Below the pieces are notes generated by a model that did not search any database, had not been told where the DNA came from, and saw only the letters and a list, made by a program, of their open reading frames with translations. 30,441 nt of DNA from a virus (Duplodnaviria > Heunggongvirae > Uroviricota > Caudoviricetes): the IMG/VR virus record IMGVR_UViG_2563366799_000003; one strand, given 5' to 3'. The position numbers and the translations under genes are program-made. Positions within the stretch are counted from its first letter, which is position 1. Each line of letters opens with the position of its first letter. Of this stretch, positions 5,381 through 20,463 are shown piece by piece.

Positions 5381-5885
5381 GTTAATCCATGTTGCCCGTC
5401 GCAATCTACAACTGGACGATGACACCTACCGCTCTGTACTGATGCGAGTGACGGGAAAGCAAAGCTGTCGTGACCTGAGAGTCGGCCAACTGGAGGATGT
5501 GCTGAAGGTACTGGAGGATAAGGGTTTCATTCGTACCCGTCCCCGTTCTCCGGCTCGCCGTCATCGTGAGACAGATATCACCGCAAAGGTCCGCAGCATC
5601 TGGCGGCAGATGCATCTTGATGGGTTTATCCGTGATGGCAGCGATACCTCACTCGATTCGTTCGTCGCGAAGATGACTGTCAGAACCAACAAAGGTAAAG
5701 GTATCGCCAGCCTGGCATGGTGCCGTGGCGATAATCTTCTGATGGTGCTGGAAAGCCTCAAGCAATGGCACCTGAGAGAAATGACAGAGGCGCTGAGTCC
5801 GCGAGACCTGGCATTTCAGGATAATCGGGGTTATGACGCCATCAACAGCCTGTATTCCAGTAAAGTAAGAAAGGTGCGCACATGA
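5358..5885 (+). CDS. gemA: GemA-like early regulatory protein (Mu gp16 family)
   Basis: ATG at 5358 with GAGGGA ribosome-binding site; N-terminus MSRASLIKLIHVARRNLQLDDDTYRSVL matches the gp16/GemA family pattern as recalled; position immediately upstream of mor as in Mu. Confidence 0.65.
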   Translation: MSRASLIKLIHVARRNLQLDDDTYRSVLMRVTGKQSCRDLRVGQLEDVLKVLEDKGFIRTRPRSPARRHRETDITAKVRSIWRQMHLDGFIRDGSDTSLDSFVAKMTVRTNKGKGIASLAWCRGDNLLMVLESLKQWHLREMTEALSPRDLAFQDNRGYDAINSLYSSKVRKVRT

Positions 5886-6289
5886 GCGAAAAGCAGAATG
5901 ACCTGTTTGGTGATATCCAGGATGACAGCATTCTGGAGCACCTGGACGATGACAGTTCGGCGGAAACTGTGCGTTTCCCTGCACTGCTGACAGAACTGAA
6001 TACGCTGTTGCGTGGCGAACTGACAAAGCATGGTGTTGACCCACGAATCTCTCTGGAGCTGGTCTATGCGATTAGCTGTCAGATTGGTGGAATGCAGATT
6101 TATTTTCCACGCGGCCAGACTCTTGAGTCATTGATTCGTGATATGAAAATCTGGCGTGATTTCAATGGCAGAAACATCACAGAGTTGGTTGAGCGTTACC
6201 GTGTTACCTATAAAACGGTGTATAAAGCAATCCGGAGAATGCGAAAGTTAGAGCAAGGTAAGAGGCAGCTCTCATTTAATATGGAGTGA
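5882..6289 (+). CDS. mor: Mor/C-family transcriptional activator (middle/late gene activator)
   Basis: 135 aa; acidic N-terminus DLFGDIQDDSILEHLDD, dimerisation region RFPALLTELNTLLRGEL, C-terminal HTH GRNITELVERYRVTYKTVYKAIRRMR; ATGA overlap with gemA stop. Only Mor/C-family member in the window. Confidence 0.85.
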   Translation: MSEKQNDLFGDIQDDSILEHLDDDSSAETVRFPALLTELNTLLRGELTKHGVDPRISLELVYAISCQIGGMQIYFPRGQTLESLIRDMKIWRDFNGRNITELVERYRVTYKTVYKAIRRMRKLEQGKRQLSFNME

Positions 6290-6633: not shown

Positions 6634-6649
6634 TGAAGCCGGTTAATCC
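6634..6649 (+). promoter_or_regulatory. candidate late-promoter activator site (motif TGAAGCCGGTTAATCC) upstream of the endolysin gene
   Basis: Identical 16-mer recurs at 14608-14623 upstream of gene I; motif centre is 69 bp upstream of the lys ATG (6714). Confidence 0.4.
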
Positions 6650-6660
6650 GGCTTTTTTTT
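6636..6660 (+). terminator. rho-independent terminator ending the early/middle transcript
   Basis: Perfect 7-bp stem AAGCCGG / CCGGCTT (6636-6642, 6648-6654) with loop TTAAT, followed by a T8 run to 6660. Confidence 0.7.
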
Positions 6661-6713
6661 CGTCCGGCACATGATGGAAGGGAAATCTAACCCACTTCCA
6701 AAGGTGCCGTTTT

Positions 6714-9706: not shown

Positions 9707-9977
9707 AGCCCTTAAGCCACTGAGCAGCAGCCAGCGCGACATCATCCGGAAAATGGCCGCCATTCTCGTCTGTGCGGAAATTGAAGTCAGAGCCATTGCA
9801 CCGCAGTTTGAAAAATCGACGGGTAAAAAATACAACTCCGAATCCGCTGATTCGTATCTGAACACATTCCTCAACAGCAACCCGGAATACAAACGCGTCT
9901 GGAAGTTGCTGCTGAAAGACAAATCCAGCGTTGAACGTGACTTCCTTGAACGTATGAGGAGGGAGAATGGCAAGTGA
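9699..9977 (+). CDS. hypothetical protein (92 aa)
   Basis: Internal ATG of ORF 9678..9977 with GGAG ribosome-binding site; ATGACTAA overlap with upstream stop. Confidence 0.5.
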   Translation: MTKALKPLSSSQRDIIRKMAAILVCAEIEVRAIAPQFEKSTGKKYNSESADSYLNTFLNSNPEYKRVWKLLLKDKSSVERDFLERMRRENGK

Positions 9978-10545
9978 ACGCCAGACGCGCGGACGACCCT
10001 CAAAGATTGATTTGCTCCCGGATGCGGTCCGGGAGCAACTTCATCAGATGCTGCGCGACAAACGACATACCCAGGAAGAAATCCGCGAAGCGATTAACGA
10101 GCTGATCAACGAATATAACCTTCCGGAGGACATGCAAATCAGCCGTACCGGTCTGAACCGCTACGCAAGCCGCATGGAAACGATGGGGTCAAAGATTCGC
10201 GCTTCACGCGAGATGGCTGAAATATGGGCATCAAAACTTGGCTCAGCGCCGACGTCTGACGTCGGAAAATTACTGCTGGAGTTTGTCAAAACACTGGCCT
10301 TTGAAACCTCAATGGAAATGGCTGACAGCGATAAAACTGTCGAACCAAAAGCGCTGGGCCAGCTTGCGCTTGTCGCCCAGCGACTGGAAGCCGCAGCGAT
10401 GGCAAGCCACAAACGCGAGAAAGAAATCCAGCAGGAGTTTGCGAAAAAAGCCGCTGCGGCCGCAGAGACCATAACCCGTTCTGCTGGTCTGTCTGCTGAG
10501 ACGGCGGCTGATATCAAACGTCAGATTCTGGGGATTGCAGAATGA
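9967..10545 (+). CDS. Mu gp27-like protein (putative small terminase / DNA-recognition subunit)
   Basis: 192 aa immediately upstream of and overlapping (ATGA) the large terminase; basic N-terminus QTRGRPSKIDLLPDAVREQLHQMLRD suggests DNA binding; position as in Mu. Confidence 0.65.
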   Translation: MASERQTRGRPSKIDLLPDAVREQLHQMLRDKRHTQEEIREAINELINEYNLPEDMQISRTGLNRYASRMETMGSKIRASREMAEIWASKLGSAPTSDVGKLLLEFVKTLAFETSMEMADSDKTVEPKALGQLALVAQRLEAAAMASHKREKEIQQEFAKKAAAAAETITRSAGLSAETAADIKRQILGIAE

Positions 10546-12125
10546 CGACGATGACGCCGGACAGAACACTCACCAGTCAGTCCGCTGCGGCTATCCTGTC
10601 GGGCGAGTTCGACAAAAGCCAGCTACTGCTTCCCTACCAGAAGCGGTGGATTGCCGACTCCTCTCAACTGAAGATTGCCGAGAAGTCGCGTCGTACCGGT
10701 CTGACCTGGGCGGAAGCCGCTGACGCGGCCCTCAACGGCTCAATGTCGGTGGAGGCCGGTGGGTGCGACACATTCTACGTCGGCACAACGAAAGACATGG
10801 CCCGTGAGTTTATTGATGCCTGTGCCATGTGGGCGAAAGCCTATGACCGCGCCGCGTCTGGCATTGGTGAAGAAGTGCTGAAGGATGAAGACAAAGACAT
10901 CCTGGTCTATGTCATCCAGTTCGCCAGTGGCTACAAAATCAAGGCGCTGTCGTCTAACCCGTCGAACCTGCGTGGTATGCAGGGTAACGTCATCATTGAT
11001 GAGGCCGCATTCCAGGCTGACCTTGCAGCGGTACTCAAGGCGGCGCTGGCGCTGACAATGTGGGGGAATAATGTTCGCCTTATTTCCACTCACAACGGTA
11101 TTGATAACCTGTTTAACACCATCATCACCGACAGCCGGGCCGGGAAAAAACGCTACTCTGTCCATCACGTCGATATTGAAACGGCCATTGCAGAGGGGCT
11201 GTATCAGCGCATCTGTCAGGTTACAAAAAAAGTCTGGTCTGTGGAGGCCGAAGCGGAATGGCTGGCTAACCTGCTGAGCGACACGGCCACAGAGGAAGAT
11301 GCCCGCGAGGAATACTACTGCGAGCCGAAGAACGGCGGTGGCGTCTATATCGCACGTTCCCTGCGCGAACGTGCGGCCAGAGGTCCGACCGTTGTCCTGC
11401 GCTTCACCGGTACGGCTGATTTTAACGCGATGCCGGACGGACTGCGCCGTGTGGAAATGCAGGAATGGCTGGAGACGGTCGTACTACCCGAACTGGAGAA
11501 GCTGCCGCAGAACCTGCGCCACTGTCTGGGGGAGGACTTTGCGCGTAATGGTGACCTGACCGTGTTTGCACCGGTGACAGTCAACGATGACACGACGCGC
11601 AACGTCCCGTTCCTGGTGGAACTCAGCAATGTGCCATTTAAACAGCAGGAGCAGGCGCTGTTTTATATCTGTGACAGGCTTCCCCGCCGTGACGGCATCA
11701 AGCTCGATGCGCGGGGTAACGGTCAGTATCTGGCAGAACAGGCGGCGGAAAAATACGGTGATGAAGTTGAGCAGGTGCAGCTTTCCGTCAAATACTACCG
11801 GGAGAACATGCCACGGTTCCGTGCGGCATTCGAAGACAATGAGCTGGTACTGCCAAAGCATGAAGATGTGATCACAGACCTCGGCGCAATTCAGCTTTAT
11901 CGCGGCGTACCGGGCATTGATGATGCACGAACTACCGGCACCGATGGCCGCAAGCGTCACGGTGACTCTGCTATCGCTATTTTTCTCGGTTTCCTCGCCA
12001 GTCGCGAGGACTGCCGCCGTTATGAAGTCCACAAGTTAAAGAAACCTTCCCGCCCCGATGAGCGTAATGAACACCGTCAGGTCCGCATCACACGGGGTCT
12101 TAAAAATCAGCGGGGATTACTCTGA
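10542..12125 (+). CDS. terminase large subunit (Mu gp28-like)
   Basis: 527 aa; position between gp27-like and portal; ATPase/nuclease-sized protein with acidic motifs (e.g. VIIDEAAF) consistent with terminase. Confidence 0.88.
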   Translation: MTTMTPDRTLTSQSAAAILSGEFDKSQLLLPYQKRWIADSSQLKIAEKSRRTGLTWAEAADAALNGSMSVEAGGCDTFYVGTTKDMAREFIDACAMWAKAYDRAASGIGEEVLKDEDKDILVYVIQFASGYKIKALSSNPSNLRGMQGNVIIDEAAFQADLAAVLKAALALTMWGNNVRLISTHNGIDNLFNTIITDSRAGKKRYSVHHVDIETAIAEGLYQRICQVTKKVWSVEAEAEWLANLLSDTATEEDAREEYYCEPKNGGGVYIARSLRERAARGPTVVLRFTGTADFNAMPDGLRRVEMQEWLETVVLPELEKLPQNLRHCLGEDFARNGDLTVFAPVTVNDDTTRNVPFLVELSNVPFKQQEQALFYICDRLPRRDGIKLDARGNGQYLAEQAAEKYGDEVEQVQLSVKYYRENMPRFRAAFEDNELVLPKHEDVITDLGAIQLYRGVPGIDDARTTGTDGRKRHGDSAIAIFLGFLASREDCRRYEVHKLKKPSRPDERNEHRQVRITRGLKNQRGLL

Positions 12126-13693
12126 TGTTTAAACAACTAACCGGAGCCGTTCGCCGGCTGCTCAGTCCTGCCACGGGAGAAGTTGTCACCGTGAACAAGG
12201 ATGAGCTGAAGCAGACGCAATCCGCAGCGGCGGTAATGAGTGTACGTTCCCCCTCGGCAGGTATCAGCGTTGCCAGTACGCTGAGTCCCGGCAGGCTTGC
12301 GGGGATCTTACGTAATGCAGCCGATGGTCATGCCCGTGATTTCTTCATTATGGCGGAGGAACTGGAGGAACGTGACCTCCACTACGCCAGCGTTTTACGT
12401 ACACGCAAGCTGACGGTTTCCGGGATTGAACCTTCAGTGGAGGCCGGGAGCGATTCCCCGCGGGATGTGGAAATCGCAGATGATATCCGTAACCTCATGG
12501 CGCAACCGCAGGTTCCCGAACTGCTGTTCGATTTGCTGGACGGGCTTGGTAAAGGCGTTGGTGTCTGCGAAATCCTCTGGAATACCAGCACCACACTCTG
12601 GAAACCCCGCGATTATGAATGGGTAGATCCACGTTTTCTGAAACCTGACCGGGAAACGCTGCGTGATTTCAGACTACTGACGGACAGGAACCCCATCGAT
12701 GGTGAGCCATTGTCACCGGGGAAATTTATCGTCCATAAGCCCCGCCTGAAATCCGGTCTGCCCTTGCGTAACGGTCTGGCGCGTCTGGTGGCCGTCATGT
12801 ATATGCTCAAGTCCTACACAGTCCGGGACTGGTGGGCGTTTGCTGAAAAATTTGGCATCCCGATTGTGGTGGGTAAATACGGCAACAACGCCAGCCCGGA
12901 ACAAATCCAGACATTGCTGGATGCGATTGCATCACTGGCATCAGATGCCGGCTGCGCAATCCCCGACTCGATGAAACTGGAGATGCAGGAAGCGGCGAGC
13001 CGTAACAGCGGTGGCACTCTCTTTAAAGAGATGGCCGAATGGTGTGACGCGCAGATTAGTAAGGCCGTACTGGGGCAGACCATGACCACGGATGACGGCA
13101 GTTCACGTGCTCAGGCGGAAGTCCACAATGGTGTGCGTATGGACATCGCCAAATGGGATGCCTGGCAGTTATCCAACACGCTGTCTGAATTCCTTGTTCG
13201 TCCCTATGTGGATATGAATTACGGACCACAGGAGCATTACCCCCGCGTCGTTCTGCGCATCAGCAAACCGGAAGATCTTAAGGTTCTGGTGGATGCACTG
13301 TCGCCGCTGATTGACCGGGGGATGGAAGTTCAGATGTCAGAGATCCGTGACAAATTCGGGCTGTCTGAACCGGAGAAAGGCGCAAAAATTCTGACACCAA
13401 CGGCGCAAATGACTAACCCACTACCGGCCATGAACCGTGAGCAGACTGCGCTTAACCGCAGCCAGCCTGACGTTCTTGATATGATGGTGGATGAAGCGAT
13501 GAATGACTGGCAGCGTACCGGCGATGCGTTCACCAGTCCGGTGCTTGAGCTGGCAAAGAAATCTGACAGCTTTGAATCTTTTCTTGCTGGCCTGCCGGCG
13601 CTTCAGAAAGAACTTGATGCGGATGAGTTTGCGACGCAGCTGGCGATGCTCTGTTTTAAAGCCCGGTCGCTGGGAGATGTAAACGATGGCTAA
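12125..13693 (+). CDS. portal protein (Mu gp29 / DUF935 family)
   Basis: 522 aa directly after the large terminase with a 1-nt TGATG overlap; size and order as in Mu. Confidence 0.85.
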   Translation: MFKQLTGAVRRLLSPATGEVVTVNKDELKQTQSAAAVMSVRSPSAGISVASTLSPGRLAGILRNAADGHARDFFIMAEELEERDLHYASVLRTRKLTVSGIEPSVEAGSDSPRDVEIADDIRNLMAQPQVPELLFDLLDGLGKGVGVCEILWNTSTTLWKPRDYEWVDPRFLKPDRETLRDFRLLTDRNPIDGEPLSPGKFIVHKPRLKSGLPLRNGLARLVAVMYMLKSYTVRDWWAFAEKFGIPIVVGKYGNNASPEQIQTLLDAIASLASDAGCAIPDSMKLEMQEAASRNSGGTLFKEMAEWCDAQISKAVLGQTMTTDDGSSRAQAEVHNGVRMDIAKWDAWQLSNTLSEFLVRPYVDMNYGPQEHYPRVVLRISKPEDLKVLVDALSPLIDRGMEVQMSEIRDKFGLSEPEKGAKILTPTAQMTNPLPAMNREQTALNRSQPDVLDMMVDEAMNDWQRTGDAFTSPVLELAKKSDSFESFLAGLPALQKELDADEFATQLAMLCFKARSLGDVNDG

Positions 13694-14480
13694 GCCGGTC
13701 AGCGATAAATACAGCATTATTCCCCAGGAAGCACTGGCCTGGCTGAAGGCGAAAAAGCTGAAGCCGGGATTTGATTACCGCGATGTCTGGATGGAAGAAC
13801 ACAGCATCGGCTTTACTGTGGCAAAGATGACGCAGCTTGATTTGCTGGCGGACGTTCGCCAGCTCGTGGAGGACGCACTGGAGAGCGGCCAGACCTTTGA
13901 GCAATTTCGCGAGGTTCTTAAACCTATGCTGGTCAAACGTGGATGGTGGGGACAGCAACTGATGGATGATCCACTGACCGGTGAAACCCGTACTGTCCAG
14001 CTCGGCAGTGACCGCCGGATGCGCGTTATCTACGACACCAACATGCGGACAGCCCGCGCGGCGGGACAATGGCAGCGTATTGAACGGACCCAACGGGCAA
14101 TGCCTTATCTTGTCTACACCGTCGGCCCCTCACGTGAGCACCGTGCGGAGCATCTGCGCTGGAAGGATGTCTGCCTGCCGGTGGATCATCCGTTCTGGCG
14201 AACACACATGGGGCCGAACGGCTGGGGATGCAAATGCGGTACACGGCAAATCAGCCGGTATGAGTATGAGCAGATGAAGGCCAACGGCACTATCAACACG
14301 GAAGCCCCTGAAGTGCGTACGGTCAGATGGGTTAACAAACGCACCGGCGAAGAAGAGACCATTCCGGAGGGGATTGATCCCGGCTGGGCGTACAACCCCG
14401 GAATCTCCCGCAGTCGCGAGCTGGATGAACAGCTACGCAGAAAACAGGACGCGTTTGACAGTCATTCGCCACAAAGATAA
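13686..14480 (+). CDS. head morphogenesis protein (Mu F-like)
   Basis: 264 aa overlapping the portal end by 8 nt; minor-head-protein-like sequence; order as in Mu. Confidence 0.75.
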   Translation: MAKPVSDKYSIIPQEALAWLKAKKLKPGFDYRDVWMEEHSIGFTVAKMTQLDLLADVRQLVEDALESGQTFEQFREVLKPMLVKRGWWGQQLMDDPLTGETRTVQLGSDRRMRVIYDTNMRTARAAGQWQRIERTQRAMPYLVYTVGPSREHRAEHLRWKDVCLPVDHPFWRTHMGPNGWGCKCGTRQISRYEYEQMKANGTINTEAPEVRTVRWVNKRTGEEETIPEGIDPGWAYNPGISRSRELDEQLRRKQDAFDSHSPQR

Positions 14481-14580
14481 AAACCATCCCACAACGCGCG
14501 TGGCGGCATTAACGATTATTACGTCATGACGGCACGTGAAAAAATCGTTAAACGCGCCACAGCGTTTTTAAACGTGTTTT

Positions 14581-14603
14581 AAACGCGGTTTCATGCCGCG
14601 TTT
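14581..14603 (+). other. 8-bp-stem hairpin AAACGCGG / CCGCGTTT (loop TTTCATG) within a cluster of TTAAACG(C/T)G dyad repeats
   Basis: Directly readable inverted repeat; three TTAAACG(C/T)G copies at 14548-14556, 14568-14576 and 14579-14587; a further AAACGC / GCGTTT dyad at 14550-14567. Confidence 0.5.
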
Positions 14604-14607
14604 ACAG

Positions 14608-14623
14608 TGAAGCCGGTTAATCC
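14608..14623 (+). promoter_or_regulatory. second copy of TGAAGCCGGTTAATCC motif, candidate late promoter of the I-T head operon
   Basis: Exact 16/16 match to 6634-6649; motif centre is 65 bp upstream of the gene I ATG (14684). Confidence 0.4.
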
Positions 14624-14683
14624 ACCTGCATCCCCGTTCCCCCCCACACTGTCCGGAAGTAAACAACGTGACCGGACAACACC

Positions 14684-15640
14684 ATGAACCCGAACAATAC
14701 GGAACTGCTGGCGCTCTGCTTTCAGCTTCCTGACCTTACCGATGATGCATTGCCGGAATGGCTGCCGATGATACCGGCGGGAACCTTTACAGGGCGTGAT
14801 GGCCGTTCGTGGGTGAACAACAATCCGGAAGCCATCATTCGTGCCTCGATGGCTTATCCAAAGCTCCCGTTTGATATCGAGCACTCTACCGAACTGAAAG
14901 GCCCGAAAGGCGATGAAGCCCCGGCTTATGGCTGGATTGACGGCTATCGCGTCAGTGATGGCGTGGTGGAGGCGCACGTTGAATGGACTGATGACGGCAT
15001 GGCGCAGCTGCGCGGCAAGAAGTACCTCTATTACAGTCCGGCCTTTCGGTTCACTGCGGACGGTCAGGTCACCCGCCTGTCCAGCGCCGCGCTGACCAAC
15101 AAACCCAACCTTGATTTACCCGCACTCAACTCTGAGGAAAACACGATGACCGTACCTGTCCAGATTGTGACAGTGCTTGGCCTCGCGGCCACTGCCACAG
15201 CAGACGACGCAGTAAAAGCCATTCAGCAGATTAAGACCGCCGAGCAGGTGGCGCTTAACCGCGCTGAGAATCCTGACCTGACGAAGTTCATTCCGGTAGA
15301 GACCCACCAGTTAGCACTTAACCGTGCGGAAAGCGCTGAAAACAAACTCAATGAGATTGCCATCAAAGAATCAGAAGCACTGGTGGACAGCGCCATTGAG
15401 TCGGGGAAAGTCGCACCGGCCAACCGAGAAATGTATCTCGCCACCTGCCGCTCTGAAGAGGGCCGAAAGCGGTTTGCTGAATTCGTGAAAGCGGCACCGG
15501 TCATTGTCAGCAAGACCACGACGACCAAAAAAGAAGGCACCGAAGGTCATGCCTCGCTTTCTGACGAAGACCTCGCGATGTGCCGCCATATGGGCATCAG
15601 CGAAGAAGAATTCCTTTCCGTTCGTAAGCAGGAGAAATAA
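14684..15640 (+). CDS. head maturation protease / scaffold (Mu I-like)
   Basis: 318 aa immediately upstream of the major head gene; N-terminal protease-like domain and coiled-coil-rich C-terminal half (scaffold-like). Confidence 0.85.
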   Translation: MNPNNTELLALCFQLPDLTDDALPEWLPMIPAGTFTGRDGRSWVNNNPEAIIRASMAYPKLPFDIEHSTELKGPKGDEAPAYGWIDGYRVSDGVVEAHVEWTDDGMAQLRGKKYLYYSPAFRFTADGQVTRLSSAALTNKPNLDLPALNSEENTMTVPVQIVTVLGLAATATADDAVKAIQQIKTAEQVALNRAENPDLTKFIPVETHQLALNRAESAENKLNEIAIKESEALVDSAIESGKVAPANREMYLATCRSEEGRKRFAEFVKAAPVIVSKTTTTKKEGTEGHASLSDEDLAMCRHMGISEEEFLSVRKQEK

Positions 15641-15643
15641 TTC

Positions 15644-16537
15644 ATGCAGGTATCCGCAGAAGTGTTGCATGCCCTGACCACCGCACTGAGCGCCGCCTTT
15701 ACCAAAGGTGTTGGTCGGGTCAATCCGCAGTATCGATCCATCGCCACGGTCATCCCCAGTTCCGGCGCGTCTAACACTTATGGCTGGGTTGAAGACTTCC
15801 CGACCATCAAAGAATGGATCGGGGCGCGTCAGCTGAAAGAACTGGCTCAGGCCGGGTATGTCATTACCAACAAGACCTGGGAAAACTCGGTCAAGGTCAA
15901 GCGCGAAAAAATCGAGGACGATCAGATTGGTCAGTATTCCGTGATTGCTGAGCAGCTTGGCCGCGATACCACGATTTTCCCGGACAAGCTGTCGTTTGAG
16001 TTGCTGTGCAAAGGCTTCGATACGCTGTGCTGGGACGGTCAGTATTTCTTCGATACTGATCACCCTGTTGGTACATCCACCAAATCGAACGTTGTGGGCG
16101 ACCCGGCGACCGATACGGGTGAGCCGTGGTTCCTGATTGATGCAACGCATGCGCTGCTGCCCATCATTTACCAGGAGCGCCGTCCGTTTAACTTCATCGC
16201 CCTTGATGATCTCACCAGTGAGCGTGTGTTCCTTCAGAACGAATTCGCCTACGGGACCGATGGCCGCAGCAACGTTGGCTTTGGTTTCTGGCAGACCTGT
16301 GTGGGGTCAAAAGCAGCACTGAACAAAGCGAACTATGAAGCCGCTGTCTCCGCAATGATGGGTATCACGGACTCTAACGGCGAACCTCTGGGCATGAATC
16401 CGACATTGCTGGTCGTCGGTAAGAACAACCGTGGTGCGGCCAAGGCGCTGATTGAAGCGGTTACGGCTGATGGTGGTGGTTCAAACATCTATTACAAGGA
16501 TGTTGACCTGCTGGTCTCACCTTACGTCAAAGCATGA
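15644..16537 (+). CDS. major head subunit (Mu T-like)
   Basis: 297 aa, 3 nt after the I stop; size and position as Mu gpT; followed by hairpin structures. Confidence 0.85.
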   Translation: MQVSAEVLHALTTALSAAFTKGVGRVNPQYRSIATVIPSSGASNTYGWVEDFPTIKEWIGARQLKELAQAGYVITNKTWENSVKVKREKIEDDQIGQYSVIAEQLGRDTTIFPDKLSFELLCKGFDTLCWDGQYFFDTDHPVGTSTKSNVVGDPATDTGEPWFLIDATHALLPIIYQERRPFNFIALDDLTSERVFLQNEFAYGTDGRSNVGFGFWQTCVGSKAALNKANYEAAVSAMMGITDSNGEPLGMNPTLLVVGKNNRGAAKALIEAVTADGGGSNIYYKDVDLLVSPYVKA

Positions 16538-16571
16538 CGTCATTACGTAAAAAATCACGTAATGCCGGATT

Positions 16572-16592
16572 AAGGAGGGGTTAACCCTCCTT
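16572..16592 (+). terminator. terminator-like hairpin after the major head gene (no clean U-tract)
   Basis: 8-bp stem AAGGAGGG / CCCTCCTT around loop GTTAA; preceded by a second inverted repeat CATTACGT ... ACGTAATG at 16541-16564. Confidence 0.35.
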
Positions 16593-16620
16593 TAAACCCA
16601 ACCTGAATGAGGTTTAAAAA

Positions 16621-17214
16621 GTGAGTGGAAAAGTTAATAAGTCAGCCGCTGGTAAGACCGGAACCACTTCGGAAAAGAAAGACGACAAAGCAACGAAGGA
16701 TACGCCTGTCCCGGCGAAACCGGCACCGGTGGCACCAGTTATTACTGATGACAGTCAGGCATCACAACCGGCGGTTGCAGCTTCAGATGTCGCATCTGAC
16801 CCGGAACCTGTACCCGGTGACAATGGAATAACGGTTATCCCGGCCACAGTCAGTCTTGTCACCATACCGGGTGAGAACACGGGTGATGACCTGAGAAAAC
16901 ATCTCTGGCAGGAGACGCTGGCACATGACCATTCAGAGGCTGTTCGCATTGCTGAAAATGTCGTGGTGCTGGAGGTCCGCGCCATTCCGGAAAACGGTTT
17001 TCGCCGGGCTGGCCGATTCTGGCCGCACGATACGGTGCATGTGTTTGTCAGCGATAACCCGGATGAACAGATTCTGGAAGATGCCGGTGGTAATCCGCTA
17101 CAGGGGTGCGTGATCAGTACCGACACAGCCCTGCGTCTGAAGGCTGAAAAGATGCTGATTGTGACCGAACTGGCGACCGTTGCCGGGACTGAAGCCGACG
17201 TGGAGAGCAAATAA
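16621..17214 (+). CDS. hypothetical virion protein with Pro/Ala/Thr-rich low-complexity N-terminus
   Basis: GTG start (first start after an in-frame TAA) with GAGG ribosome-binding site 8 nt upstream; 197 aa; located between major head and gp36-like genes. Confidence 0.45.
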   Translation: MSGKVNKSAAGKTGTTSEKKDDKATKDTPVPAKPAPVAPVITDDSQASQPAVAASDVASDPEPVPGDNGITVIPATVSLVTIPGENTGDDLRKHLWQETLAHDHSEAVRIAENVVVLEVRAIPENGFRRAGRFWPHDTVHVFVSDNPDEQILEDAGGNPLQGCVISTDTALRLKAEKMLIVTELATVAGTEADVESK

Positions 17215-17654
17215 TGGGCATCTACGTAACGCGTGAGGACCTGCTGGCAACCGATGGTGACCGCGTCTGGAACATGGCAATCAACAAAGAGACGCAGCAG
17301 CTCGACGAAGAAAAGATCCAGCGTGCGATTGATGACACTGATGCAGAAATTAATTCCTTTCTGGCAAAGCGTTATCAGTTGCCGCTGAACCTTCCGAGCC
17401 TGCCGAGTCCGTTGCGCCGGGCGGCGGTTTCCATCGCGTTCTACTGGCTGTCTGAACGGGACCATCAGATCACCGATGAAATCCAGAAGCGTTACGACGA
17501 AGCCCTCCGCACCCTGCGTGAAATCGCCAACGGCACCCGTGACCTCGGTGTGCCGTCTGACACCCCGGTCCCTGAGACCGACACCGGAAAGCTGATCATC
17601 GTCAGTGAAAACCGTCGTCTGTTCACCCGTAACAACCTGAAAGGGGTGCTGTGA
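17214..17654 (+). CDS. Mu gp36-like protein (DUF1320 family; head-tail joining candidate)
   Basis: 146 aa; 1-nt overlap with upstream stop; position after the capsid gene as in Mu-like phages. Confidence 0.55.
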   Translation: MGIYVTREDLLATDGDRVWNMAINKETQQLDEEKIQRAIDDTDAEINSFLAKRYQLPLNLPSLPSPLRRAAVSIAFYWLSERDHQITDEIQKRYDEALRTLREIANGTRDLGVPSDTPVPETDTGKLIIVSENRRLFTRNNLKGVL

Positions 17655-18196
17655 TGGGAATTACTGTCGAGGTCAGAGGAGACCAGAAGTTTCAGGACAT
17701 TCGCCGTGCGATTGAGCGACTGGCTGACCAGTCGCTGCAACAGGAGCTACTGGAGAGCATTGGCGCTGTGGTGGAGTCACAGACCCGCCGGCGCATCTCC
17801 AGCGAAAAATCCAGTCCTGCCGGCGAGAAATGGCAGGACTGGTCTGACAGCTACGCGAAAACCAGACACAGCAACCAGAGCCTGTTACAGGGCAACGGCG
17901 ATCTGCTCGACAGTATCCAGTATGTGGTCAGCGGCTCTGTCGTTCGTGTGGGTACGCCGCTTGATTATGGCCGGACGCACAACGAGGGGTTTTCCGGCTC
18001 GGTGTCTGTGTCAGCCCATAAGCGACTCATCTCACAGGCATTTGGACGGGCGCTTAAACACGGGGTATGGCAAACCGTGGGGGCGCATAAACGTATGTTG
18101 AACATCCCGCAGCGTGAGTTCCTCGGCCTGTCCTCCGGGAACAGTCAGGAACTGCTGCACGTCATCGGGGATTTCTGGAATGAGGTTCTGCAATGA
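17654..18196 (+). CDS. phage virion morphogenesis / tail completion protein (Mu G / P2 S-like)
   Basis: ATG at 17654 in TGATG overlap (ORF-track start 17651 is GTG); C-terminal motif IPQREFLGLSSGNSQEL recalled as typical of this family. Confidence 0.45.
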   Translation: MGITVEVRGDQKFQDIRRAIERLADQSLQQELLESIGAVVESQTRRRISSEKSSPAGEKWQDWSDSYAKTRHSNQSLLQGNGDLLDSIQYVVSGSVVRVGTPLDYGRTHNEGFSGSVSVSAHKRLISQAFGRALKHGVWQTVGAHKRMLNIPQREFLGLSSGNSQELLHVIGDFWNEVLQ

Positions 18197-18985: not shown

Positions 18986-20463
18986 TGTCCATCGGTAATA
19001 TTCCTGATGATATTCGTGTCCCGCTGGTCTGGATCGATATCGATAACTCTATGGCGATGAGTGCCGCGCCGGCACAGTCCCGAAAAATTCTGGTTGTGGG
19101 TCAGCAGCTCGCCAGCGCGACTGCTTTACCGTTGACGCTGAACCGTATTACTGGCGACAGCATGGCTGATGAACTCTATGGCCGTGGCTCCATGCTGGGT
19201 GAAATGGCAAAGATGGTCCGTATGGCCAACAGTTACACCGAGATGTATGCGATGGGACTGGAAGATATTGCCCAGGGTGCCGCGGCGAGTGCCACAGTCA
19301 CGATGCTCGGCACCGCCACTCAGGCTGGTACGCTGGCACTGATGATCAATGGCGTATCTGTCCAGGTCGGGGTCAGCATCGGTGATGAAGCGGCAACCAT
19401 TGCCGGCAATATCATCGCTGCAATTACCGCAAAGCCTGCCACTCAGGTTACTGCCACAGCAAAAGCTGAAGCTGCTGCAACGGTAGTGCTGACCGTGAAG
19501 TGGAAAGGCGTCACGGGAAATGACAGTGATGTGCGCCTGAACTATTACGCCGGAGAAAAAACACCTGCCGGCATCAGTGCAACACTGACCGCATTTTCGG
19601 GTGGTACGGGGACGCCGGATATTCAGTCTGTTGTCGCGGCGCTGGGAGATGACTGGTACACGGATATCATCTTCCCGTACCTCGATGCCCAGAGCCTGAA
19701 CACCATTCGTGACGAACTGCTGGAACGCTGGGGGCCGCTCAAGATGATGGAGGCGCTGTTGTGGTCTGCTTATCGCGGAACACATGCCCAGAGCGGAACA
19801 TTCGGACATACCCGCAATGACTGGCTGATTTCCTGTATCGGCACCAACATCGCACCTGAACCGTCATGGATGTGGGCCGCCAGCTACGGTGCAACGGCGG
19901 CATACCAGCTTGCCATAGATCCGGCCCGTCCTCTCCAGACTCTGATCCTGACAGGCATCAAGCCCCCCGCTCGCGGTATCCGCTGGGATATGCCAGAGCG
20001 TAACCTGCTGTTGCATGACGGTATCGCCACGCACTTTGTTGATGCCGGAGATAACGTCTGTATTGAGCGCGAAATCACCATGTACCGCGTAAACCGCTAT
20101 GGCGATACGGACATTTCATACCTCGATGTGCAGTCGCCAGCAACGCTTGGCCGTATCCGTTATGTCATCAAAAACCGTTTCACCAGTCGCTACCCACGCC
20201 ACAAGCTGGCGGGTGATGACGTGCTTGATTTGCTCGATGCCGGTCAGCCAGTCATGACGCCAAAAATCTGTCGGGCTGAGTTACTGGATATTGCGCTGAC
20301 TGAGCTTATCCCGGCAGGTCTGGTGGAGGATTTCGAAGATTATAAAGACACGCTTGATGTCACCATCGACAGCAAAGACCCAAACCGTCTGAACTTTATC
20401 TGCCACCCGAATCTGGTGAATCAGTTGCGCGTTCTGGCCGGTCTCATCCAGTTCAAACTTTAA
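18982..20463 (+). CDS. contractile tail sheath protein (Mu L-like)
   Basis: 493 aa, followed by a small tube-sized protein; sheath-typical size and order. Confidence 0.85.
   Translation: MMSIGNIPDDIRVPLVWIDIDNSMAMSAAPAQSRKILVVGQQLASATALPLTLNRITGDSMADELYGRGSMLGEMAKMVRMANSYTEMYAMGLEDIAQGAAASATVTMLGTATQAGTLALMINGVSVQVGVSIGDEAATIAGNIIAAITAKPATQVTATAKAEAAATVVLTVKWKGVTGNDSDVRLNYYAGEKTPAGISATLTAFSGGTGTPDIQSVVAALGDDWYTDIIFPYLDAQSLNTIRDELLERWGPLKMMEALLWSAYRGTHAQSGTFGHTRNDWLISCIGTNIAPEPSWMWAASYGATAAYQLAIDPARPLQTLILTGIKPPARGIRWDMPERNLLLHDGIATHFVDAGDNVCIEREITMYRVNRYGDTDISYLDVQSPATLGRIRYVIKNRFTSRYPRHKLAGDDVLDLLDAGQPVMTPKICRAELLDIALTELIPAGLVEDFEDYKDTLDVTIDSKDPNRLNFICHPNLVNQLRVLAGLIQFKL

Follow-up and report, generated by a model that had tools for sequence, protein, structure and literature searches.

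[quoted passage not shown] Central sites of other Mu-like prophages, from E. coli O157:H7 Sakai, H. influenzae, S. Typhi and N. meningitidis, were reportedly tested by Oram and Pato in 2004; like the site described here, these were candidate gyrase sites at the centres of Mu-like prophages. The Mu SGS has been described as the strongest gyrase site studied (PMC3820752), and according to a review, among the sites tested in its place only that of the O157:H7 Sakai prophage promoted Mu replication (PMC10052514). Gyrase cleavage induced by quinolones at a Mu-type SGS is very efficient, occurs at a single place and has a 4-bp stagger, and the site is needed for fast replicative transposition and for synapsis of the prophage ends. 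In genetic analyses of the Mu SGS, loss of the left arm had no consequence, whereas the right arm proved essential (PMC10052514, PMC13284261). Deleting the SGS is reported to delay lysis by roughly 100 min (PMC10052514). The SGSs of the plasmids pSC101 and pBR322, together with a 130-bp motif derived from Topo-Seq, have arms in which GC- and AT-rich DNA alternates with a period of ~10.75 bp (PMC6379681), and the presence of such phased arms on either side of the cleavage core has been attributed to wrapping by the C-terminal domain (CTD) of GyrA (Sutormin et al. 2018, PMC6379681). With the frequency matrix of that study the Mu SGS scores 14.3. A candidate SGS was proposed in Pseudomonas phage Ab30 in 2018 on the basis of an insertion-free segment (PMC5977238), and a 2021 paper described the conservation of gyrase sites in transposable phages as unclear, with anti-CRISPR (acr) genes sitting where the SGS would be expected (PMC8705779).

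The stretch of DNA analysed here (30,441 nucleotides, hereafter the window) is a rare Mu-like prophage of E. coli. The segment of interest, comprising an F-like gene, an intergenic gap and an I-like gene, is found with 100% identity in a chromosomal prophage of E. coli ECONIH4, and occurs in 5 of 5426 complete E. coli genomes. The ECONIH4 prophage has TG...CA ends with a 5-bp duplication (ATGGC) and is inserted within a lambdoid tail gene. A ~2.5-kb IS66-family element sits in its tail-fibre region; without this element the prophage measures ~32.35 kb. No isolated phage in the phage collection was matched by megablast with the F-gap-I segment, and a more distant blastn search across the gap returned only Klebsiella phage Kp4866-3, the nearest isolated phage, with ~70% DNA identity and an I protein that is 65% identical. 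A scan of contigs with the I protein gave one irrelevant Rhodospirillales locus only, and the prophage lineage was absent from the papers that our literature searches found.

The genes on either side of the gap make up a Mu head module, as judged by Pfam:

9967-10545, Mu Gp27 family
10542-12125, large terminase
12125-13693, Mu portal
13686-14480, + strand, F-like head morphogenesis gene (PF04233, E 5.8e-13), the left border of the gap
14684-15640, + strand, I-like protease/scaffold gene (PF10123, E 3.3e-47), the right border of the gap
15644-16537, Mu T major head protein
17214-17654, Mu Gp36 family
17651-18196, G-family gene (PF05069)

In RefSeq the F-like gene is labelled 'phage head morphogenesis protein'. 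Since this gene ends at 14480 and the I-like gene starts at 14684, the F-I gap spans 14481-14683 and is 203 bp long. An earlier, sequence-only reading of this DNA had described a gap of about 200 bp with no ORF of 60 amino acids or more, empty of genes and with no G-like gene between F and I, and each of these statements holds: no ORF of at least 60 amino acids lies inside the gap, no + strand ORF longer than 26 amino acids lies wholly within it, and the G-family gene is found elsewhere, at 17651-18196. The sole long ORF that reaches into the gap (14591-14977, 128 amino acids) is on the minus strand, antisense to I.

The larger, left-hand part of the gap has the following anatomy:

14486-14509, small left-arm palindrome CCACAACGCGCGTGG, containing an AACGCGC unit that recurs at 14551
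14500-14520 and 14540-14560, imperfect 21-nt inverted repeat, 81% complementary, with its centre at ~14530
14519-14540, predicted gyrase cleavage core, placed by register with the Mu cut
14539-14605, + strand, near-certain homologue of the SGS right arm (by Mu alignment and leave-out profile), including both hairpins
14539-14544, right-arm A6 tract
14548, 14568 and 14579, right-arm units TTAAACGCG, TTAAACGTG and TTAAACGCG, respectively
14597-14604, right-arm inverted CGCGTTTA

Three TTAAACG(C/T)G repeats and two hairpins had been reported here by the sequence-only reading and all five were located. The repeats coincide with the three right-arm units, fall within 40 bp of each other and are the only three copies in the whole 30.4-kb window, against an expectation of 0.52. 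Hairpin 1 (AAACGC/GCGTTT, 14550-14567) has a DNA folding energy of -4.9 kcal/mol (z -2.5), whilst hairpin 2 (TAAACGCGG/CCGCGTTTA, 14580-14604), with a stem of 9-10 bp, reaches -10 kcal/mol (z -5.0). The 14500-14560 inverted repeat, the left arm of which is a mirror of the conserved right-arm box, folds with -15.4 kcal/mol (z -2.9), and the gap taken as a whole folds better than 200 of 200 shuffled sequences (z -3.9). The A/T tracts of the right arm are phased at ~10.5-11.5 bp.

In the Mu record, the annotated gyrase cut lies at 17879/17880, inside the 196-bp gap between G and I, in agreement with the earlier statement that the Mu counterpart of this region holds the gyrase site. Immediately to the right of the cut, the Mu sequence reads GATTTTTTAAAACGCGCCACGGGATTTTTAAACCGGTATTTAACGG and is resembled by the stretch AAAAATCGTTAAACGCGCCACAGCGTTTTTAAACGTGTTTTAAACGCGG in the window. 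Local alignment of window positions 14550-14603 with Mu positions 17898-17950 extends over 54 columns with a score of 49, compared with 19.3 +/- 2.9 (maximum 33) in a shuffle control (n=1000), and 21 positions of a 24-nt core are identical. As the most powerful single test, we also built a leave-out profile from 19 relatives, excluding the window's own group, Mu itself and the groups with G upstream. Across the 36.7 kb of Mu this profile has one significant match (17888-17937, E 1.7e-6), which sits 8 bp rightward of the annotated cut, and it has one significant match in the window (14526-14602, E 2e-18). Such similarity is striking because the flanking proteins can barely be aligned, the identities between the window and Mu being 24% for I, 36% for T, 35% for F and 28% for the portal. 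[quoted passage not shown] The cleavage core and left arm bear no sequence relation to those of Mu. As the Mu cut lies 19 bp to the left of AAACGCGCCAC, the same register predicts a top-strand cut in the window near 14531/14532 (G/GCAC/G), give or take a few base pairs.

The two sites resemble each other in further respects. Both lie directly upstream of I in intergenic regions of similar length (203 bp in the window, 196 bp in Mu), and in both the homologous right arm is followed by a late promoter (PI in Mu). They differ in that the upstream gene is G in Mu but F in the window; in addition, the AAACGC/GCGTTT dyad is cleaner in the window, where a third exact TTAAACG unit and a mirror copy in the left arm are also present. 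The Mu SGS has been defined experimentally; the window site is a candidate.

The phasing of the right arm is also shared. Measured from the predicted cut, the centres of the A/T tracts lie at +36, +48, +59.5 and +70.5, with equal values in Mu and in the window. Fourier analysis of A/T content at periods of 10-11.5 bp gives z-scores of 3.8 for the window and 4.0 for the Mu right arm. In the window this periodicity ranks 23 of 30,388 windows (the 7th best cluster) and the Mu right arm is the 3rd best cluster in Mu; both right arms are in the top 0.1% of genome positions and neither is unique. Phased arms of this kind are the feature held in common with the pSC101 and pBR322 SGSs and the Topo-Seq motif; there is no sequence homology with any of these, and where they are degenerate the block is conserved base by base. 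A crude score based on the 133-bp Topo-Seq consensus (base identity or G+C/A+T match, used as a stand-in for the Topo-Seq matrix) did not single out the gap region and missed the Mu SGS in Mu too. Since it fails to place the true Mu SGS near the head of the ranking for Mu, we regard this score as uninformative.

Measured from the left end of the ~32.35-kb IS-free prophage, the predicted cut is 15,759 bp in, at 48.7% of the prophage length, and the Mu cut, at 17879 of 36717, is also at 48.7%. In 21 near-full-length contigs the block is found at 41-52% (median 47%), with values of 48.1% in Kp4866-3, 50.7% in Shewanella phage MuM16-2 and 50.2% in Vibrio phage martha 12B12. The sequence-only reading had placed the gap at the position of the Mu gyrase site near the genome centre, and both the right-arm homology and the 48.7% location support this. 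The central position is consistent with a gyrase site rather than independent evidence for one, however, because much of the agreement would be expected simply from the conservation of gene order.

The block is conserved across many phages. A pattern common to Mu and the window, AAACGCGCCACNGNNTTTTTAAAC (21 specified bases), is present in 36 viral contigs belonging to six sequence groups; wherever I was detected in such a contig, it follows the pattern at a distance of 134-193 bp. Mu proper and two other groups have G upstream of the pattern, whilst F occupies this place in the window type and one further group. Because a pattern search selects for the motif, we also collected a protein-based sample, comprising 80 loci identified via alignment of their I proteins and then searched with a 70-bp profile. 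The block was found upstream of I in every locus of this sample with an I protein at least 62% identical to that of the window and in several loci with I at 48-61% identity; the remaining loci (I at 41-61% identity) gave weak or no profile matches. The block is kept in ~45 of the protein-found contigs. Amongst isolated phages, it is carried by Klebsiella phage Kp4866-3 and, as seen with a broader profile, by MuM16-2 (E 1.5e-8), with a marginal broader-profile match in martha (E 0.017) that is backed by reading of the sequence. Both MuM16-2 and martha have the F-I arrangement.

Alignment of 25 sequences (alignment A2) reveals three conserved blocks with variable DNA between them. Within block 1, (TACGATG)...GAAAAtTTnTTAAACGCnnnnnnGCGTTTTTAAACGnGnTTTAAACGnGGTT, it is the AAACG and TTTAAA units that hold the invariant columns, and variation is free at the six bases that separate AAACGC from GCGTTT. 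The invariant positions of the right arm comprise the A-tract, TTAAACG and then TTTAAACG units ~20 and 31 bp further on; in the left arm, an AAACGC unit at the position of the small palindrome is common to many relatives. Changes in the arms of hairpin 1 (GGGATTT in Mu, AAACGT in contig L049, GATTT in MuM16-2 and martha) are uncompensated, whilst the TTTAAAC spacing of 20 and 11 bp is kept. It is thus the helical phasing of A/T-rich, TpA-containing units that is conserved, not pairing. At the same time, the near-exact base conservation of AAACG and TTTAAAC goes beyond what bendability by itself would obviously demand.

Among close relatives, 3 of the 65 right-arm columns vary (4.6%), a figure to be read in the light of the 21 of these 65 bases that were fixed by the search pattern. 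The predicted core (14519-14540) is the most variable segment, with 8 of 22 columns varying (36%), compared with 16% in the left part and 11-20% in the coding flanks. This asymmetry, with the right arm kept and the core and left arm variable, parallels the genetics of the Mu SGS as a pattern of conservation only.

The rest of the gap is predicted to comprise a Mor/C-type late promoter for I, and the features relevant to it are:

5882-6289, Mor-family activator gene (PF08765)
14608-14633, + strand, late-promoter activator box (TGAAGCCGGTTAATCC followed by a degenerate right dyad half), a predicted Mor-family activator site
14645-14650, + strand, -10-like hexamer CACACT, in (near-)invariant columns nAnACT in alignments A2 and A3
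14650-14678, + strand, inverted repeat TGTCCGG/CCGGACA, following the -10 hexamer and preceding the start codon of I

A late-promoter motif had been noticed in the gap by the sequence-only reading and is recovered here as an exact 16-mer, TGAAGCCGGTTAATCC, that occurs exactly twice in the window, at 14608 and at 6634, the latter upstream of the lysis genes. The copies at 6634 and 14608 lie 80 and 76 nt, respectively, before the next start codon. We read the box as an activator site because its two copies stand at similar distances from a start codon and a Mor-family activator is encoded by the prophage. The 6634 copy folds as a hairpin that is followed by T8, whilst the gap copy has the degenerate right half. 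In relatives, the box (block 2 of the alignment) is conserved as a dyad that in many is perfect (GAAGCCGG-TAAAT-CCGGCTTT), and where this is so it may double as a terminator. The counterparts of the hexamer in Mu are TAGACT in Plys and CAAACT in PI.

The inverted repeat at 14650-14678, which with the hexamer makes up block 3 of the alignment, ends 5 nt before the ATG and its 3' arm overlaps a weak Shine-Dalgarno sequence (GGA). Across 19 relatives, 81% of its cells are paired, versus ~37% in slid controls, and three pairs are changed on both sides. Mu has an unrelated repeat (CTGCTCA/TGAGCAG) with the same symmetry in the same place before I. The repeat may serve as an operator; alternatively, in transcripts that read through from upstream it may hide the ribosome-binding site. 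Overall, the arrangement is reminiscent of the C-dependent promoters of Mu (Plys, PI, PP and Pmom) in the presence of a Mor/C-family activator gene, in having a box common to the lysis and head operons and in a weak -10 (nAnACT) without a recognisable -35. It differs in the box itself, a GAAGCCGGTTAATCC dyad in the window compared with CCCGCACCT in Mu, and in that a scan of window proteins recognised only a single Mor/C-family gene. On the minus strand, a sigma-70-like site running from 14542 to 14515 was set aside, there being no downstream minus-strand gene.

The block and the promoter are separable. In six related contigs (L057, L058, L059, L061, L062 and L069), an ORF of 104-111 amino acids is found between the two and, with ~330 bp of cargo inserted, the block stays beside F and the promoter beside I. 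MuM16-2 and martha have ~300 bp with terminator-like hairpins between block and promoter. The cargo ORFs are homologous to each other and very divergent. They have no match in Pfam or PHROGs, and a search of 5.8 billion proteins returned four homologues only, all of them unnamed Klebsiella proteins, which point to no function.

Taken together, these results lead us to propose, with a probability of roughly 0.7, that a strong gyrase site and, behind it, a late promoter operate in this region. The gap would be a two-part control region derived from a common ancestor with Mu. Its first part (~14487-14605), the Mu SGS homologue, would be bound by host DNA gyrase, with the cleavage core near 14531-14536, and the phased TTAAACG and A-tract array at 14539-14605 would be wrapped around a GyrA CTD, with the arm supplying the T segment. 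Highly processive supercoiling from this central site would then extrude the prophage as a plectonemic loop, and loop extrusion would in turn place both prophage ends side by side for transpososome assembly after induction. The second part (14608-14683) would act as the late promoter of the I-T head operon, made up of the Mor-family dyad box, the weak -10 hexamer CACACT and the inverted repeat over the ribosome-binding region. The central position, right-arm homology, phased A/T tracts and asymmetric conservation of a Mu-type SGS were all found in the element, and its binding and cleavage by gyrase, the exact cut position and a role in transposition are predicted on that footing. Homology is no guarantee of strength, because only the Sakai site was able to replace the Mu SGS (PMC10052514). 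The element is not of a new kind, Mu-type SGSs being already known.

The strong conservation of the repeats might also be explained if the TTAAACG array were an iteron-like site for a sequence-specific DNA-binding protein of phage or host, such as a nucleoid protein or a Mu-family factor yet to be described, instead of or besides a surface for gyrase wrapping. Such a protein would account for the (near-)invariance of AAACG and TTTAAAC across very diverged phages, for the coexistence of direct and inverted copies and for the mirroring of the right-arm box by the left arm in the window lineage. We consider this unlikely: in published work the homologous Mu DNA is cut and wrapped by purified gyrase with no other protein present (PMC10052514, PMC6379681), our data point to no candidate binding protein, the 20- and 11-bp unit spacings correspond to helical repeats, as expected of bending signals, and the Vibrio and Shewanella phages keep the phasing but lose the dyad partner. 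Somewhat less likely still is a role for the block as curved upstream DNA, UP-like or activator-assisting, that boosts only the late promoter of I. The predicted -10 hexamer is indeed preceded, at 50-115 bp, by phased A/T tracts, and in Mu the SGS and PI share one intergenic region. In the six cargo-bearing relatives, MuM16-2 and martha, however, block and promoter are ~300-350 bp apart whilst the distance from the promoter box to I is fixed, and no such array accompanies the promoter motif at the lysis genes.

Were the hairpins intrinsic terminators of the F transcript, the region would be merely a terminator plus a promoter, the explanation that the sequence-only reading had named as telling against its own proposal. 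In favour of this, both hairpins are stable, TTTTT comes after hairpin 1, and in several relatives the promoter dyad forms a perfect hairpin with a T run. Yet a + strand scan of 14000-15200 passes no terminator site, the folding energy of hairpin 1 is low (-4.9 kcal/mol), a T tail is missing from hairpin 2, and the arm changes in relatives and Mu are uncompensated with the TTTAAAC phasing kept. With no + strand terminator found and the repeats located upstream of the promoter motif and separable from it by ~330 bp, a terminator plus a promoter does not explain the repeats, and we think this reading improbable. That the block encodes a cis-regulatory RNA or a small RNA is more improbable again: the fold z-score of -3.9 would be in keeping with it, but an Rfam search of 14300-14850 gave no match at E <= 1, the hairpins of the block lack covariation, and conservation tracks the helical phasing of the DNA. 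Hairpin-based readings of either type, RNA or terminator, were rejected on the grounds that covariation is absent and that pairing is lost in Mu, MuM16-2 and martha whilst phasing is kept.

The reading of the block as a gyrase site has several implications. The special character of the Mu right arm has so far been argued from one sequence; the window and its relatives now allow dozens of naturally diverged right arms to be aligned, and so provide a testable consensus. The block also offers a signature by which the centre of a Mu-like prophage can be annotated. Its distribution suggests that a gyrase-recruiting element is conserved well beyond Mu, and so bears on whether SGSs are general in transposable phages. 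A bolder proposal, which we put forward tentatively and consider less likely than not, is that the phased TTTAAAC(G) array is a sequence-defined, portable gyrase-capture module of transposable phages of several genera. If this were true, strong gyrase sites would be general in transposable phages, and gyrase breakage at the site could explain the build-up of accessory and anti-defence genes at the junction.

The cargo slot, empty in the window and filled in relatives, lies directly beside the putative gyrase site. The sequence-only reading had proposed this junction as an accessory hotspot to be compared across related prophages, and had noted that acr and aca genes insert at the G-I junction of Pseudomonas Mu-like phages. 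Both points stand up: in addition to the small ORF in the six contigs, Pseudomonas phage JBD30 has AcrF1 and a winged helix-turn-helix (wHTH) gene (aca1) between G and I. In the acr-aca loci of the Pseudomonas casadabanviruses (JBD30 and D3112) the same junction is the cargo slot, as it is for the small ORF of the six enterobacterial relatives; the slot of the window differs in being empty, with neither an acr-like ORF nor an aca HTH gene. The only profile match with E <1 in the 37-kb JBD30 genome falls in the gap between aca1 and I (19366-19406, at 52.5% of the genome), in inverted orientation; the match is weak (E 2e-4 to 5e-4) and we treat it as a lead only. The array as such was seen in phages of Escherichia, Klebsiella, Vibrio and Shewanella and possibly, inverted, near the acr loci of Pseudomonas casadabanviruses.

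Six Mu-like phage contigs related to the window prophage (L057, L058, L059, L061, L062 and L069) carry an inserted open reading frame of 104-111 amino acids at the junction between head genes F and I. Five of the copies are placed as follows, and in L059 the spacing between the putative strong gyrase site (SGS) block and I is the same as in the others:

L057:2568-2897, cargo ORF
L058:2549-2884, cargo ORF
L061:299-628, cargo ORF
L062:2568-2897, cargo ORF
L069:2560-2874, cargo ORF

The ORF lies immediately 3' of the last TTTGAACGGGGG unit and ahead of the late-promoter box, and its copies are homologous to one another, if strongly diverged. None matches a Pfam or PHROG family, and only four database homologues were found, all of them unnamed and from Klebsiella wherever a source is stated. 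The ORF can be regarded as a putative accessory or anti-defence gene, and the slot that it fills holds no gene in the window.

In Pseudomonas phage JBD30 (L125), where acr and aca1 genes lie between G and I, a search of the whole genome with a profile of the enterobacterial SGS block gave a single match with E <1, which falls in the aca1-I gap at 52.5% of the genome:

JBD30 19293-19507; best match 19366-19406, minus strand (profile, E 2e-4 to 5e-4)

The match is composed of 11-bp repeats (AACCCCGTTAG AACCCCGTTAG), and ~40 bp upstream lies AAACGCGC...AAACGGGGTTAG in forward orientation. These repeats may represent an inverted, GC-rich counterpart of the SGS block, beside the acr locus.

Within the window, the 22 bp predicted to include the gyrase cleavage site (14519-14540) contain eight columns that vary among near-identical relatives, in which the adjoining right arm is nearly invariant; substitutions are concentrated in the predicted core. 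Most other relatives have a conserved TACGATG at this place. Further downstream, an inverted repeat separates a -10-like hexamer from the I start codon:

window 14650-14678, inverted repeat before I
Mu 18018-18044, inverted repeat at the corresponding place

The window repeat is retained across relatives, with three pairs altered on both sides, and its 3' arm overlaps the weak ribosome-binding site of I. The Mu repeat (CTGCTCA/TGAGCAG) is unrelated to it in sequence.

Whereas in Mu G lies between F and I, the G-family gene of the window is found 3 kb downstream, past the head genes, a displacement shared by relatives L012 and L019:

window 17651-18196, G-family virion morphogenesis gene (PF05069)

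Two strong dyads, CATTACGT...ACGTAATG and AAGGAGGG-TTAA-CCCTCCTT, lie in the gap downstream of the major head gene (16538-16620), which also gave the strongest 10-11-bp A/T periodicity signal of the window and probably serves as a terminator region. At 6634-6662 the 16-mer promoter box recurs, and this second copy folds into a perfect hairpin of 7 bp with T8 behind it. Since this terminator-like sequence is located between the lysis genes and the gene that follows Mor, it may serve both as middle-transcript terminator and as late-promoter activator box.

A tail fibre assembly gene is disrupted by an IS66-family element that extends beyond the window end and displaces the apparent prophage centre by ~2.5 kb. 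The E. coli ECONIH4 locus carrying the same prophage (L001) includes the whole element and both prophage ends:

window ~29064 to end, L001 35379-37884, IS66-family element (tnpA, tnpB, tnpC; imperfect 27-nt terminal inverted repeats)
L001 5088 and 39945, outside the window, prophage ends (TG...CA, 5-bp target duplication ATGGC)

Such ends and duplication are the hallmark of Mu-type transposition, and the prophage interrupts a tail gene belonging to a lambdoid prophage.
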